Assembly (NCBI RefSeq): GCF_056746865.1
Contig: NZ_CM163382.1
Reading direction: 5' to 3' (one strand)
Length of the DNA stretch: 64,000 bases
Part shown: positions 38,901 to 44,900 of the stretch, piece after piece
Layout: every line of letters begins with the position of its first letter
Numbering within the stretch: the first letter of the stretch is position 1
Made by a program: the position numbers

Positions 38901-41900
38901 TACTCTCACTCTTCTCAAAAGATAATGTGGAGGGAGGGAAAGCCAGAATGCAGCCCATCAGGTGGGACGATTATGCCGTCCGGGTTATGAATGGTGGACG
39001 TATGGTGCAGCTATATAATAAATCGAAACCAATATATTCCCCACTGACTTACCGTTTTACAGATGAAAGTGGTGAAGAGCGTATGGGGTATTACGCTCCG
39101 GTATTTTCGCTGATTGATGGTCAGTTTATCCCTGTTACTTGATTAACCTGTTGGGCTACAAATCAGGATGTCCGGTAAGGTGATTATTACTGAGTTAAGC
39201 ACCTTACCGTTTTTTAAATTTTTTGTCGCTGATATTCCAGACAGGAAAACAATATGCCTTTAGCTGCCAGATTAAACGACAAAGGTACCGGCACAGGGAA
39301 AGATCACGTAACGCTGCTTTTTTGTACTAAATAATTCGCATTTTATGTTTAAAATTTGAGATATTCCTCATTACCTGAGGCTGTTTTTTATTACTTATAC
39401 ATGATCAAATACTCCTTACATAATTAAGGGGAACAAAATGGAACTTAAAAATTGATGGAACATATTTCTGTTATTCCCGATTACAGACAAGCCTGGAAAG
39501 TGGAACATAAATTGTCGGATATTCTACTGTTGACTATTTGTGCCGTTATTTCGGGTGCAGAAGGTTGGGAAGATATAGAGGATTTTGGGGAAACACATCT
39601 CGATTTTTTAAAACAATACGGTGATTTTGAAAATGGTATTCCTGTTCACGATACCATCGCCAGAGTTGTATCCTGTATCAGTCCTGCAAAATTTCACGAG
39701 TGCTTTATTAACTGGATGCGAGATTGCCATACTTCAGATGATAAAGACGTCATCGCAATTGATGGAAAAACGCTCCGGCACTCTTATGACAAGAGTCGCC
39801 GCAGGGGAGCGATTCATGTCATTAGTGCGTTCTCAACAATGCACAGCCTGGTCATCGGACAGATCAAGACGGATGAGAAAACCAATGAGATTACAGCTAT
39901 CCCAGAACTTCTTAACATGCTGGATATTAAAGGAAAAATCATCACAACTGATGCGATGGGTTGCCAGAAAGATATTGCAGAGAAGATACAAAAACAGGGC
40001 GGTGATTATTTATTCGCTGTAAAAGGAAATCAGGGGCGGCTTAATAAAGCCTTTGAGGAAAAATTCCCACTGAAAGAATTAAATAATCCAGAGCATGACA
40101 GTTACGCAATGAGTGAAAAGAGTCACGGCAGAGAAGAAATCCGTCTTCATATTGTTTGCGATGTCCCTGATGAACTTATTGATTTCACGTTTGAATGGAA
40201 AGGACTGAAGAAATTATGCGTGGCAGTCTCCTTTCGGTCCATAATAGCAGAACAAAAGAAAGAGCCAGAAATGACGGTCAGATATTATATCAGTTCTGCT
40301 GATTTAACCGCAGAGAAGTTCGCCACAGCAATCCGAAACCACTGGCACGTGGAGAATAAGCTGCACTGGCGTCTGGACGGTGTGCCGCAGGAACACAAGA
40401 TAGCTGCATAAGGATACGCAGTTAGCTTTTGTATAAGCTCATAAAGAGATGGTGGAAGGCCCACCGGGATCGGCTGTCGGAAGCAGATTCCAAACCACTT
40501 CATGCTGCTGTGGTAAAGAGCCATGGTAGTGAGCGATGAAGTAAAGCGTGAGTGAAAACTCAGCAGGTAAGATACTCATGAGACGAGTGAACCCGAACCC
40601 ATGTTGACGCGTCGTAAACCAGAGACTGACATCAAAACCGAAGGGGCGTCCAGCCTTCGGGATAAGTCTGCGAGTGAATTCCGAATGCTGCGCAGACGGT
40701 GTCCGGCGTAAAGTGGGCGTGACGGAGTATCAGGCTCTTCCTGGGAACTGCGGGAACCTGTCGTTGTGATGATAAGGGAGAAATGCAAGTCACTGAATTG
40801 GCGAGCATGAAAGTACCGATGCACAGCACAGGGACGGAGCCGTTCGTAGTAGTGATGAAGCTTCTGTAATGGAGGTGGAGCGAAGGGGCGGCATCAGACA
40901 GTCTTTGGACAGTGTTCAACTGAACATGTTCAGGAGGAGACAATGACAAAGACAAAAGCGTTTAACATTGATAAGTCACTGGTGGTCAGCGCGTACAGGC
41001 GAGTGAAGACCAGTGCAGGCGCGGCGGGAATTGATAAGCAATCGCTGGCGGACTTTGATAAACGGTTAGTTGATAATCTGTACAAAATCTGGAACCGACT
41101 TTCTTCAGGAAGTTATTTCCCACCGGCAGTGAAAGCGGTGGCAATTCCGAAGAAATTGGGTGGAGAGAGAATTCTGGGTATCCCGACAGTCAGCGATCGT
41201 ATCGCGCAGACGGTGGTAAAACTGGCCTTTGAGCCACAGGTTGAGCCACATTTTCTGGCAGACTCTTACGGCTACAGACCGAATAAATCGGCACTGGATG
41301 CTATAGGGGTAACGCGTAAGCGTTGCTGGTATTACGACTGGGTACTGGAATTTGACATCAAAGGGCTGTTCGATAACATCCCGCACGAACTGATAATGAA
41401 AGCCGTGGACAAACACAATCCGGCCCGGTGGGTAAAATTGTATATACAGCGGTGGCTGACAGCGCCGATGGTGATGTCAGACGGAGAAGTCAGAGCACGA
41501 ACAATGGGAACGCCGCAGGGAGGTGTCATAAGTCCGTTGCTGGCAAACCTGTTCATGCATTATGTGTTTGATAAATGGCTGGCAAAATATTATCCGAAAG
41601 TGCCGTGGTATCGATATGCTGATGATGGCATTTTGCATTGTCACAGCGAAGCAGAAGCGACTGAAATGCGAGAAGTATTACGCAAAAGATTTAGCGAATG
41701 CGGACTGGAAATGCATCCGGAGAAAACGCGAGTTATCTACTGCAAAGATGGAAGCCGGAAGGGTGATTATGAACATACCATGTTCGACTTTCTGGGGTAC
41801 ACATTCAGGCGACGCGTAGTAAAGAACGTTAAGCGAAACAGTCTGTTTGTAAGTTTTACCCCCGCAGCGAGCAAATCAGCGCTAAAGGCAATGCGTCGGG

Positions 41901-44900
41901 AAATCAAAGCGACAGGGATAAGGAAAAGAGTGGATTTAAGCATTGAGCAGATAGCGAAATGGATAAATCCAAAACTGAATGGCTGGATAAATTATTACGG
42001 GCGATATACCTGTTCGGAATTATACAGCGTGTTCAGATATATCAATAAAGCACTGGTGAGGTGGGGGCGTAAGAAATATAAAATGCTCAGCCGATACAAG
42101 ACAAGAGCCTCAAAATTTCTGGAAGAAATGGCGAAGCGAAGTCCACAGTTGTTTGCCCACTGGCGTCTGAAGATGAGAGGCGGACTTGTTTGATGGGAGC
42201 GGTATGAGCCGAGAGGTTCACGTACCGTTCTGCGAGAGGCTGCGGGGGAGGTTCCTGCGGCCTACTCACCTGGTAATGAATGAAGACGACTGCAAAATAA
42301 GAAGAGGAAATGCAGCAGAATTATTTTCAGGGATACGGCACATCGCTATTAATATTTTGACGAATGATAAGGTATTCAAGGCAGGGTTAAGACGTAAGAT
42401 GCGAAAAGCAGCCATGGACAGAAACTATCTGGCGTCAGTCCTTGCGGGGTGCGGGCTTTCGTAATCTTTCCCTGGATGTGAAAAGCAGCTGCGGACAGGG
42501 AAAGATCATCAGAAGTACACTTTTTGTACTAAACAATTCGCATTTTATGTTTAAAAATTGAGATATTCCTCATTACCTGAAGCTGTTTTTTATTGCTTAT
42601 ACATGATCAAATACTCCTTACATAATTAAGGAGAACAAAATGGAACTTAAAAAATTGATGGAGCATATTTCTATTATCCCCGATTACAGACAAGCCTGGA
42701 AAGTGGAACATAAATTATCGGATATTCTACTGTTGACTATTTGTGCCGTTATTTCTGGTGCAGAAGGTTGGGAAGATATAGAGGATTTTGGGGAAACACA
42801 TCTCGATTTTTTGAAGCAATATGGTGATTTTGATAATGGTATTCCTGTTCACGATACCATTGCCAGAGTTGTATCCTGTATCAGTCCTGCAAAATTTCAC
42901 GAGTGCTTTATTAACTGGATGCGTGACTGCCATTCTTCAGATGATAAAGACGTCATTGCAATTGATGGAAAAACGCTCCGACACTCTTATGACAAGAGTC
43001 GCCGCAGGGGAGCGATTCATGTCATTAGTGCGTTCTCAACAATGCACAGCCTGGTCATCGGACAGATCAGGACGGATGAGAAATCTAATGAGATTACAGC
43101 TATCCCTGAACTTATTAACATGCTGGATATTAAAGGAAAAATCATCACAACTGATGCGATGGGTTGCCAGAAAGATATTGCAGAGAAGATACAAAAACAG
43201 GGAGGTGATTATTTATTCGCTGTAAAAGGAAACCAGGGGCGGCTAAATAAAGCCTTCGAGGAAAAATTTCTGCTGAAAGAATTAAATAATCCAGAGCATG
43301 ACAGTTACGCAATTAGTGAAAAGAGTCACGGCAGAGAAGAAATCCGTCTTCACATTGTTTGCGATGTCCCTGATGAACTTATTGATTTCACGTTTGAATG
43401 GAAAGGTCTGAAGAAATTATGCGTGGCAGTCTCCTTTCGGTCAATAATAGCAGAACAAAAGAAAGAGCCCGAAATGACGGTCAGATATTATATCAGTTCT
43501 GCTGATTTAACCGCAGAGAAGTTCGCCACAGCAATCCGAAACCACTGGCACGTGGAGAATAAGCTGCACTGGCGTCTGGACGTGGTAATGAATGAAGACG
43601 ACTGCAAAATAAGAAGAGGAAACGCAGCAGAATTATTTTCAGGGATACGGCACATTGCTATTAATATTTTGACGAATGATAAGGTATTCAAGGCAGGGTT
43701 AAGACGTAAGATGCGAAAAGCAGCCATGGACAGAAACTACCTGGCGTCAGTCCTTGCGGGGAGCGGGCTTTCGTAATCTTGCCCTGGTACAGTAAACAAA
43801 CGAAAGTTGTTATTTCAATGGTCAGGGCAAGAGCATGAAGTGTTTACTACACACTATGCTCTTGTCCTGGAGTCAGGTCTTGTTTGGAGGGATAAATGGT
43901 AGATATTGTCGAGGCCGATAAAACGGATATTTATTTCATTCAGGAGAGTGTTTATGGCAAAATCGGGTTGCCAGCTTTTGGTAATACAATAGGACCATCC
44001 GCACAGCAAGTTGTTAAAAAGGTATTCGCTGTCGTTAAAGAACGAGATAAGACACATGCAAAACAGAGATTATTGTTGGAATATAATGGTAACAAACTCT
44101 GGATGAATGCTATTGATGGCAGTGAAGCTATCCTACCAACAGAATTTTCTAAGCGATACGAACTTTCATTATTTAATACTACTAATTTTGGAGAAGATCC
44201 TTTTCCTGATGTTAATTTATATAATAATATGAAATCAAGTTTTTTTGTAAGGTTTGGTGGAACATCCCATCCCGAGGCTTGGGCTATTTATAATGCAAGT
44301 ACGAAAGAGGTTAAATATATAGAAACTGCAAGAGAAATTGATAAAATATTCAGTGATTTTAACTTGAGTGGTACATTGCCAATTCACATTGGTCGATGAT
44401 TTTTTAAATTGTGTGATTAAATAATTGAACATTAATGATGATTTATAGCATTATTATTCTATAACATGAATAAACGGATTGAATGTGTTATGTTAAAAAT
44501 AAGTTTATACGTAATAATATTGTTATTTTCCTTTCAGATTAGTGCAGCCATTACTAGCAAGGAAAGTGAGGTTGTTTCACCATTATTAATGGATGTTAAT
44601 TCTTCACTAACAATGGAAAATATTTCTGAATTATCCACATCATCGGAACCATCGCAACAGGGGGTATTTCCTGTAATATGTACTCGACTTCATCCTGGCT
44701 CCGTAATGAAACGCCAGTTATTAACCGGCTGGGGGCCTGTTTTTATAATTGGTGATGATCCTTTTTCTCTGCGCTGGATGAGTGAACATCTGGAGATCCT
44801 TAAATCGCTAAATGCCCTTGGTTTGGTTGTTAATGTTGAATCAGTAGAACGAATGGAGGTATTACAGCAGCGGGCTGATGGGTTATTGTTATTGCCAGTT

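Follow-up and report, generated by a model that had tools for sequence, protein, structure and literature searches.

A transposase gene in two parts raises the question of what separates the parts, and whether the separating element is complete and still able to move. The gene considered here lies in a window of 64,000 nt, the whole stretch of contig NZ_CM163382.1 (assembly GCF_056746865.1) that was analysed. An identical arrangement carries three labels in RefSeq: "ISAs1 family transposase (5' part)", "ltrA group II intron reverse transcriptase/maturase" and "ISAs1 family transposase (3' part)". With a probability of roughly 0.92, the 1,891 nt between the two parts represent a full-length and structurally intact copy of E.c.I2, a group II intron of class D (IIB3), in sense orientation in the transposase gene of an ISEc1 element. 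The two "partial ISAs1 transposase" pseudogenes and ltrA would then be a single ISEc1 element with a single catalogued intron, not three relics. The presence of E.c.I2 in ISEc1, or H-repeat, is an already known and catalogued feature, and the importance of the result is slight beyond the correct annotation of the locus. The host element and its surroundings consist of the following features:

39319..40379, + strand: 5' part of ISEc1/H-repeat copy 1, the 5' exon (aligned with the intact copy; the identical locus of strain Yu5 is annotated in RefSeq)
39455-40379, + strand: transposase reading frame of copy 1, 5' exon portion
40373-40379, + strand: IBS1, CTGGACG, the last 7 nt of the 5' exon
40380..42270, + strand: insert assigned to group II intron E.c.I2, bacterial class D / IIB3, 1,891 nt, GUGUG...CUCACC (exact insertion; Rfam; published descriptors)
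42271..42475, + strand: 3' part of ISEc1 copy 1, the 3' exon, in which the transposase frame reaches a stop codon ending at 42464
42521..43787, + strand: ISEc1/H-repeat copy 2, intact and in tandem
42640-43776, + strand: transposase ORF of copy 2, 378 aa
between 43582 and 43583: empty homing site of copy 2
45004..45198, + strand: short third ISAs1-family transposase fragment, a pseudogene (mapped from the annotation of the collinear strain Yu5)

The protein of the intact copy matches the NCBIfam model transpos_ISAs1 (NF033564) with 413.8 bits against a cut-off of 70, and the family name given to the transposase in RefSeq is ISEc1 family. The host element is located at the end of a type VI secretion/Rhs-type island, adjoining tRNA-Asp (aspV).

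The limits of the insert were obtained from the empty tandem copy. When positions 40380-42270 (+ strand) are removed, the interrupted copy aligns end to end with the intact one (96.6% identity over 1,267 nt, with one gap). The junctions, CTGGACG/GTGTG...CTCACC/TGGTAATG, carry no 1-nt ambiguity: CTGGACG/TGGTAATG is the junction both in the intact copy and in the interrupted copy freed of its insert, the flanks of the site (112 nt upstream and 40 nt downstream) are identical between both copies, and a shift of one base at either boundary fails to restore the empty site (G vs C at the left boundary, G vs T at the right one). The 5' end, GUGUG at 40380, agrees with the conserved group II GUGYG. 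At the 3' side the insert has the same end as RmInt1, an experimentally studied homologue (CUACUCACC / ...CCUACUCACC). Because RmInt1 shares this end and one-base shifts cannot regenerate the empty site, the 3' splice site was placed at 42270 (...CUCACC). The first-pass annotation had read the locus as a group II intron in an H-repeat transposase gene, with about 1.89 kb beginning GTGTG inserted after CTGGACG; the exact insertion relative to the intact copy bears this out, and the ISAs1 model match and the RefSeq annotation agree with its naming of the split gene. Only its caveat that the 3' splice site was uncertain by 1 nt proved unnecessary.

Within these limits the insert is organized as follows:

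40451..40568, + strand: domain I segment, Rfam RF01999 (group-II-D1D4-2), 105.5 bits against a gathering score of 36, E=1e-20
40619..40624, + strand: putative EBS2, CCAGAG; its loop is homologous to that of EBS2 in relatives
40647..40653, + strand: EBS1, CGUCCAG, in the terminal loop of the hairpin 40638-40660, complementary at 7/7 positions to the 5' exon end
40754..40835, + strand: domain II, approximate limits (helices 14-17 of the RNAalifold consensus, with compensatory changes)
40839..40892, + strand: domain III, approximate limits (helices 18-20 of the same consensus, with compensatory changes)
40943..42193, + strand: intron-encoded protein of 416 aa in domain IV, with an RT domain containing YADD and a maturase (X) domain
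42197..42230, + strand: domain V, a 34-nt hairpin with AGC triad, 2-nt bulge and GAGA tetraloop (RF00029, fold, covariation)
42234..42267, + strand: domain VI; its bulged branch-point A is 42264 and lies 7 nt from the 3' end (fold, covariation)

The six-domain architecture of group II introns is therefore present with approximate limits, since domains I-III and V-VI are backed by covariation and domain IV holds the ORF. Covariation in domains I-III was assessed on an RNAalifold consensus of nine class D introns, namely the present one and eight relatives including RmInt1. Across the 122 consensus pairs, 97% of positions are paired, compared to about 41% when partners are slid; compensatory double changes occur in 88 pairs, compared to 13-23 in the slid controls, and none of 500 shuffles reached the observed values. 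RF01999 also matches nine relatives at the same relative position. At the 3' end, RF00029 covers domains V-VI (42195-42270) with 58.3 bits against a gathering score of 40, the fold of this region has a z-score of -4.0, and 11 of 28 pairs show compensatory changes among 10 introns. The present copy keeps 28/28 pairs in domains V-VI and 112/122 in domains I-III, and it has lost none of the columns that are invariant in class D RNAs. The ten broken pairs might suggest decay; however, five of them come from a one-column alignment shift, and the segments concerned, GATACTC and GAGTATC, pair perfectly. Two further Rfam matches were set aside, a snoZ40 match inside the intron (E=0.83) being noise and a Plastid-ndhA D5 match, below its gathering score, being redundant with RF00029. 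An ORF of 92 aa at 42186-42464, which leads from domain V to the 3' exon, is purely mechanical and no gene.

The ORF of the 416-aa protein is intact, is preceded by an AGGAGG Shine-Dalgarno sequence upstream of its ATG, and encodes every residue that is invariant among relatives. The protein matches Pfam RVT_1 (2.7e-39) and GIIM (7.3e-16), as well as NCBIfam TIGR04416 (group_II_RT_mat; 412 bits, cut-off 300). Neither an endonuclease (D/En) nor an HNH or other extra domain was found in it with Pfam and NCBIfam profiles. Its C-terminus lies only 28 residues past the GIIM match, forming a short class D tail; a tail of this kind after domain X is a signature of class D, and L393, F404, H406 and W407 within it are invariant in an alignment with RmInt1 and six other relatives.

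It may be asked whether the insert is instead a degenerate intron fragment, or a different RT element, such as a retron or a defence-associated RT, that happens to lie in an insertion sequence. The RT domain does give sub-threshold NCBIfam matches to Drt3a, Drt2 and retron RTs. None of these comes near its cut-off (72 bits where 200 are required, for example); the group II model scores well above its own, and a maturase domain is present. A degenerate fragment with a non-functional architecture is likewise countered by the exact insertion relative to the empty site, by both ribozyme halves passing their Rfam gathering scores, by the covariation in domains I-III, V and VI, and by the match of EBS1 to the exon, so that such readings are barely credible. 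The covariance-model search, the hairpin with a GAGA tetraloop near the 3' junction and the 416-aa RT/maturase ORF in domain IV, all put forward in the first-pass annotation, accordingly came out in favor of a group II intron, through RF01999 and RF00029, the compensatory changes, and the RVT_1, GIIM and TIGR04416 matches.

Regarding the identity of this intron, the published entry for E.c.I2 gives ISEc1 in an Rhs element as host gene, an RT-X protein of 416 aa and a length of 1,891 nt, at 518-2408 of X77508 (Toro & Martinez-Abarca 2013, PMC3552965, Table S1). In strain UMN026, E.c.I2 is listed as class D at 269264-271154 (Leclercq & Cordaux 2012, PMC3522654). The insert agrees with these entries in its length, its RT-X protein, its place in ISEc1 within an Rhs-type region, and its chromosomal position, as intron matches in genomes with standard numbering fall at about 269-271 kb on the + strand, like the UMN026 copy. 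Class D placement follows the published tables for E.c.I2, and the insert's protein is about 57% identical to those of RmInt1-type relatives. The assignment to E.c.I2 was thus based on these published descriptors and not on alignment to X77508; the naming rule of the intron database gives the same name only to introns with more than 95% nucleotide identity to the reference. The statement in the earlier annotation that group II introns had been described in H-repeat elements of E. coli corresponds to E.c.I2 (PMC3552965), and the comparison with catalogued E. coli introns that it proposed ended in matching descriptors. E.c.I2, so named in the Zimmerly database, was reportedly first described in 1994, by Ferat, Le Gouar and Michel and by Knoop and Brennicke.

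Since the assignment rests on descriptors, another class D intron in ISEc1, or an uncatalogued relative, must be weighed. One such candidate is E.c.I9 of E. coli ATCC 8739, which is likewise class D, likewise found in Rhs regions, and likewise targets H-repeats. E.c.I9, however, has 1,887 nt, a 405-aa protein and a different insertion position in the element, whereas the insert has the 1,891 nt and 416 aa of E.c.I2 and occupies the chromosomal position given for E.c.I2-1 in UMN026. Fragments of E.c.I9 of 159-193 bp occur in Rhs regions, and if the widespread short matches to the insert are such fragments, the resemblance is only about 86% over about 100 nt. An origin from E.c.I9 or an uncatalogued relative is therefore quite improbable, and the insert is treated below as E.c.I2.

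The best non-E. coli relatives among the matches listed are rhizobial introns whose proteins are about 57% identical to that of E.c.I2; among them is the RmInt1 copy carried by pRmeGR4b of S. meliloti GR4. RmInt1 (Sr.me.I1), found in ISRm2011-2 of Sinorhizobium meliloti, is the experimentally characterised member of class D / IIB3. Its limits at locus L002 (440-2323) give 1,884 nt, reproducing the published length. Compared to E.c.I2, with 1,891 nt and 416 aa, RmInt1 encodes 419 aa, and the two proteins are 56% identical. Both introns are without an En domain and have the C-terminal tail in common; their ribozymes can be aligned with covariation, begin with GUGUG and end with CUACUCACC; EBS1 and EBS2 lie in homologous loops; and both interrupt an IS transposase gene in sense orientation. 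They differ in host, IS family and target sequence, and also in mobility, RmInt1 being multi-copy (10 copies in GR4) and demonstrably mobile, whereas E.c.I2 is single-copy with no spread seen. For RmInt1, the lack of an En domain, a preference for the lagging-strand template and an in vivo splicing level of 0.07% have been described, as has the inactivation of copies by point mutations.

Exon recognition by E.c.I2 is strong in one part and weaker in the other. EBS1 (CGUCCAG) and IBS1 (CUGGACG) form a perfect 7-bp pairing, and in 8 of 9 class D introns the EBS1 loop pairs with its own 5' exon end by 7-8 nt, the remaining intron, from Sulfobacillus, having 4 nt. The putative EBS2, whose loop is flanked by the covariation-supported helices 10 and 11, forms 5 of 6 possible pairs with exon positions -16 to -11 (CACUGG), and 4 of these pairs are contiguous. 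This is the weakest EBS2-IBS2 pairing among the nine introns compared, the others, with 5-6 contiguous bp, including RmInt1.

As to distribution, the intron is present, with at least 99% identity, in 172 of 5,426 complete E. coli genomes (3%), and its copies are 100% identical in most of the matches listed. The locus of the present insertion is occupied in 167 of the 172 carriers. Across these 172 genomes, the other ISEc1 copies, several per genome, were not entered by the intron, and the identical empty target that lies 3.2 kb downstream in the same orientation was never co-occupied. In a single genome the intron is joined to the flank of copy 2, which could be read as an invasion; this genome has only one H-repeat, and the arrangement is a recombinational deletion between the tandem copies. 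The places with ISEc1-like copies number about 23,600 across 5,318 genomes. Five diverged copies were sampled, and in four of them the homing site is the same as in the window from -30 to +15, so that no variant with a better IBS2 was seen among these four; the fifth (L019) gave no pattern match. So many ISEc1-like places, a homing site invariant in four of five sampled copies and a single occupied locus argue against current activity. This distribution suggests a single insertion that has been passed on vertically, and signs of recent movement were not seen.

Whether this copy is a dead or silenced relic that persists merely through vertical inheritance, as an interruption of a single ISEc1 transposase gene, was considered in this context. 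Along with the single locus, the unused neighboring target and the thousands of identical empty sites, the weak EBS2 pairing points in this direction, as does the inactivation by point mutation known from RmInt1 copies. UMN026 has 1 copy of E.c.I2 against 4 free sites, and selection-driven extinction has been argued (Leclercq & Cordaux 2012, PMC3522654). Conversely, the intact ORF still encodes YADD and all residues invariant among relatives; the class D-invariant RNA columns are all kept and domains V and VI are perfect; identity of at least 99% in 172 genomes implies little time for decay; and an active intron under selection would also be low-copy. A relic thus appears doubtful, and the causes proposed for it (subtle inactivating substitutions, weak EBS2-IBS2 pairing, absence of expression, or host restriction) are similarly tentative. 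It can also be suggested, with equal reserve, that E.c.I2, a structurally perfect and endonuclease-less intron, is prevented from retrohoming in E. coli; a mismatch in the EBS2-IBS2 pairing, a lack of expression, or restriction by the host might cause such a block. If this were true, the intron would in the long run serve to keep one ISEc1 transposase gene locked, and spreading would not be its role. An intron present in 3% of complete genomes, at one locus, with identical free targets unused, is a small data point for the debate on the persistence and extinction of bacterial group II introns.

From RmInt1 and general group II biology, a life cycle of E.c.I2 can be proposed. The intron would be co-transcribed with the transposase mRNA, and its protein would bind the RNA and promote lariat splicing. 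Ligation of the exons may be very inefficient, which would leave the transposase effectively off. At replication forks, the RNA-protein particle would reverse-splice into the single-stranded DNA of an ISEc1 target and so retrohome, and because the intron protein cannot cut the second strand, the nascent lagging-strand end would serve as primer. Rrn operons of E. coli are co-directional with replication. The intron and the rrn operon of the window are on the same strand, so the sense strand of the intron is the lagging-strand template; the direction of replication was taken from the rrn orientation, as the GC skew of the window is too noisy. The orientation of the intron is thus consistent with the lagging-strand-template preference of RmInt1. 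In the host gene itself, the A-run near the gene start is 1 nt shorter in copy 1 than in copy 2, and therefore even a perfectly spliced transposase would still lack its first six residues.

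When the segment 40380-42270 is removed from the first of two tandem ISEc1/H-repeat elements, the remainder is collinear with the intact second element, with 96.6% identity over 1,267 nt and one gap. The features of this locus are the following.

~39319-42475, + strand: ISEc1/H-repeat copy 1, the intron-bearing tandem element
40451-40568: domain I segment, Rfam RF01999, 105.5 bits, above the gathering score
40943-42193: RT/maturase ORF, 416 aa, with RVT_1 and group II maturase domains
42195-42270: domains V-VI, Rfam RF00029, 58.3 bits, above the gathering score
42197-42230: domain V, with AGC triad, two-base bulge and GAGA loop
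42234-42267: domain VI, in which A42264 is bulged, 7 nt from the intron end
42521-43787 (approximate), + strand: ISEc1/H-repeat copy 2, the intact tandem element

The junctions of copy 1 read CTGGACG/GTGTGCC...CCTACTCACC/TGGTAATG and the empty site of copy 2 reads CTGGACG/TGGTAATG. Around the insertion site, both copies match exactly for 112 nt on the 5' side and 40 nt on the 3' side. Because the flanking bases differ on each side, placement of the 1,891-nt insert is unambiguous, and all coordinates of the first-pass annotation are correct. The 1-nt doubt which that annotation had left on the 3' splice site is removed by comparison with RmInt1, the studied intron of S. meliloti: its limits, deduced at 440-2323 of the fetched locus (L002), correspond to the length in the literature (1,884 nt), and it ends in CUACUCACC, as does the window intron. 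To our knowledge, the 3' end of class D introns is not the usual AY. The proposal of a group II intron with an RT/maturase ORF in an H-repeat (ISAs1-family) transposase gene is supported by the Rfam, protein-model and alignment results. The host gene scores 413.8 bits as an ISAs1-family transposase against a cut-off of 70, and RefSeq annotates ltrA at the identical locus, flanked by two partial ISAs1 transposase pseudogenes.

The two copies also differ near the transposase start (ATGGAACTTAAAAA-TTGATGG), where an A-run has 5 A in the interrupted copy (39439-39457) and 6 in the intact copy (42640-42660). As the run of copy 1 is one base shorter, the first ATG is out of frame and the only possible start is the ATG at 39455. 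Judged from the sequence, even a perfectly spliced copy 1 mRNA would give a transposase six residues shorter.

The insert is very probably the already catalogued intron E.c.I2 and not a new one, an identification made by published descriptors. The original descriptions are reportedly those of Ferat et al. 1994 and Knoop & Brennicke 1994. Toro & Martinez-Abarca 2013 (PMC3552965) list E.c.I2 from E. coli in host gene ISEc1 of a Rhs element, as RT-X, with 416 aa, 1,891 nt, domains I-VI and X77508 518-2408 as reference. Leclercq & Cordaux 2012 (PMC3522654) place E.c.I2-1, of class D, 'in a Rhs region' of UMN026 at 269264-271154 (1,891 nt), with the Rhs IS elements ISEc1-5 as E.c.I2 targets. Among genomes with standard numbering there are intron matches on the + strand at ~269-271 kb. 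E.c.I2 and the window intron are of one class and have the same length, the same size of protein, the same host gene and the same position on the chromosome.

The ribozyme scaffold of the window copy is intact, including the branch A. Ten related loci were fetched, nine of which carry both Rfam families arranged alike, and RNAalifold applied to the aligned 5' halves of nine introns gave a consensus of 122 pairs (domains I-III). In this consensus 97% of cells are paired, versus ~41% when partners are slid 1-3 columns, and double changes occur in 88 of the 122 pairs versus 13-23 in the slid controls; none of 500 shuffles matched the observed values. Domains V-VI comprise 28 pairs, with compensatory changes in 11. 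The window copy keeps 28/28 pairs in domains V-VI and 112/122 in domains I-III; five of the ten missing pairs reflect a one-column alignment shift, and the helix concerned (GAUACUC/GAGUAUC) pairs perfectly.

The 5' exon is correctly recognised by EBS1, whose CGUCCAG, within the loop 40644-40654, is a perfect 7-bp complement to the last seven 5'-exon bases. The homologous loop pairs its own 5'-exon end over 7-8 bases in eight of nine introns, and over 4 in Sulfobacillus. Since the homologous loops pair each relative's own exon, both EBS1 and the intron boundaries are validated.

The RT-maturase ORF is likewise intact. It scores 412 bits against the NCBIfam group II RT/maturase equivalog (cut-off 300) and contains YADD, and profile searches of the 416-aa protein found no endonuclease domain. 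The best non-E. coli matches among those listed in a plasmid protein search are from rhizobia, at ~57% identity; one of them is the pRmeGR4b copy of RmInt1 in S. meliloti GR4. A C-terminal tail after the maturase domain has been described as a class D signature; the tail is conserved in the protein alignment, with L393, F404, H406 and W407 invariant.

By analogy with RmInt1, the nearest studied relative, the intron would be co-transcribed with the transposase mRNA and excised as a lariat with the help of its own protein. Exon ligation is 0.07% for RmInt1 in vivo; it would probably be very inefficient here as well, and the transposase would therefore be essentially silenced. The intron and the rrn operon of the window lie on the same strand, and in E. 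coli the rrn strand is co-directional with replication, so the intron sense strand is expected to be the lagging-strand template. This orientation fits an RmInt1-like pathway, that is, retrohoming at replication forks without endonuclease and with lagging-strand priming.

Full-length copies of at least 99% identity, all of them chromosomal, are present in 172 of the 5,426 complete E. coli genomes searched, and 167 of these carriers have the intron at exactly the locus of the window, as queried with unique upstream sequence plus exon and intron. ISEc1-like sequences occur in ~23,600 places in 5,318 genomes. The homing site from -30 to +15 was identical in four of five diverged ISEc1 copies sampled, the fifth (L019) giving no pattern match. 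The empty homing site of copy 2 (43582/43583) is a perfect target in the same orientation, 3.2 kb downstream; in none of the 172 carrier genomes is it occupied together with copy 1. The single shared locus and the unused targets therefore indicate one vertically inherited insertion with no trace of recent mobility. This pattern fits the low occupancy in UMN026 and the selection-driven extinction model of Leclercq & Cordaux 2012 (PMC3522654). The E.c.I2 copy may be active but constrained. It may also be inactive, for example by weak EBS2 pairing: the putative EBS2 (40619-40624) forms four contiguous exon pairs (CCAG/CUGG), or 5/6 counting across an A-A mismatch at 40623, and its pairing with IBS2 is weaker than in any of the other eight class D introns of the comparison, the loops of the relatives pairing 5-6 exon bases.

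One genome with the intron joined to the copy-2 flank was considered as a new insertion and rejected, as its single H-repeat represents a deletion through recombination of one tandem copy with the other. Variant forms of the locus occur in three strains, BEC1-S17-ESBL-09 (L014), SCU-105 (H31) and LR-58-2 (H146). One has a single intron-bearing H-repeat from deletion between the tandem copies; the other two are two-piece matches, one with an IS3-family and one with an IS1B transposase annotated beneath.

Sequences related to the intron were also found elsewhere. In about 2,000 intron-free E. coli genomes, B strains and O157:H7 among them, ~100 bp of unannotated sequence match 40433-40535 (intron query positions 54-156, part of domain I) at 85-86% identity; these matches probably correspond to the E.c.I9 fragments of 159-193 bp that have been reported from Rhs regions. 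The match in ECOR29 is 472 bp long, with 74.6% identity. Class D introns on plasmids of Sulfobacillus (L004), B. thuringiensis (L006) and E. faecalis (L007) lie inside YADD codons of another reverse-transcriptase gene, with TAC/TAT GCx GAC/GAT GAY before and T after the 5' junction, and are apparently nested in another intron's ORF (twintrons).

Collinearity of the window with strain Yu5 extends over 1-56763. The features are, in order, rrn 23S-5S-tRNA-Asp, then dkgB...dnaQ and tRNA-Asp (aspV), followed by a complete type VI secretion cluster; next come a truncated vgrG, a DUF4123 adaptor and two proteins of unknown family, and then the two H-repeats, two small ORFs, a third H-repeat fragment and yafV-ivy-fadE. 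Downstream of the type VI cluster, 33675-39142 holds the C-terminally truncated vgrG, the adaptor-like DUF4123 protein, which has a weak Tla1 match, and two ORFs directly upstream of the H-repeats, plausibly an effector/immunity pair:

36494-38065: ORF of 523 aa, no NCBIfam match
38132-39142: ORF of 336 aa (mechanical), CDS 38180-39142 in Yu5, no NCBIfam match

Of the two small ORFs that separate copy 2 from the third H-repeat fragment (43896-44978), one, of 170 aa, has a match to PFL_4695, a protein family of integrating conjugative elements, and looks like an orphan at this locus. Five Rfam matches to naRNA4 (CssrE/REP) within 49963-54969 flank rayT on both sides, and a 150-bit isrC match (54578-54700, - strand) falls within an IS3-family transposase gene that carries a frameshift, at the 5' end of that gene. 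The last segment, 55060-64000, carries a lateral flagella (Flag-2) cluster with full-length FlhA- and FlhB-family genes and a sigma-54 activator, the FlhB match of 341.6 bits being just under the cut-off of 349.25. In the otherwise collinear Yu5, the Flag-2 cluster is deleted from within flhA, whereas the window carries full-length flhA.
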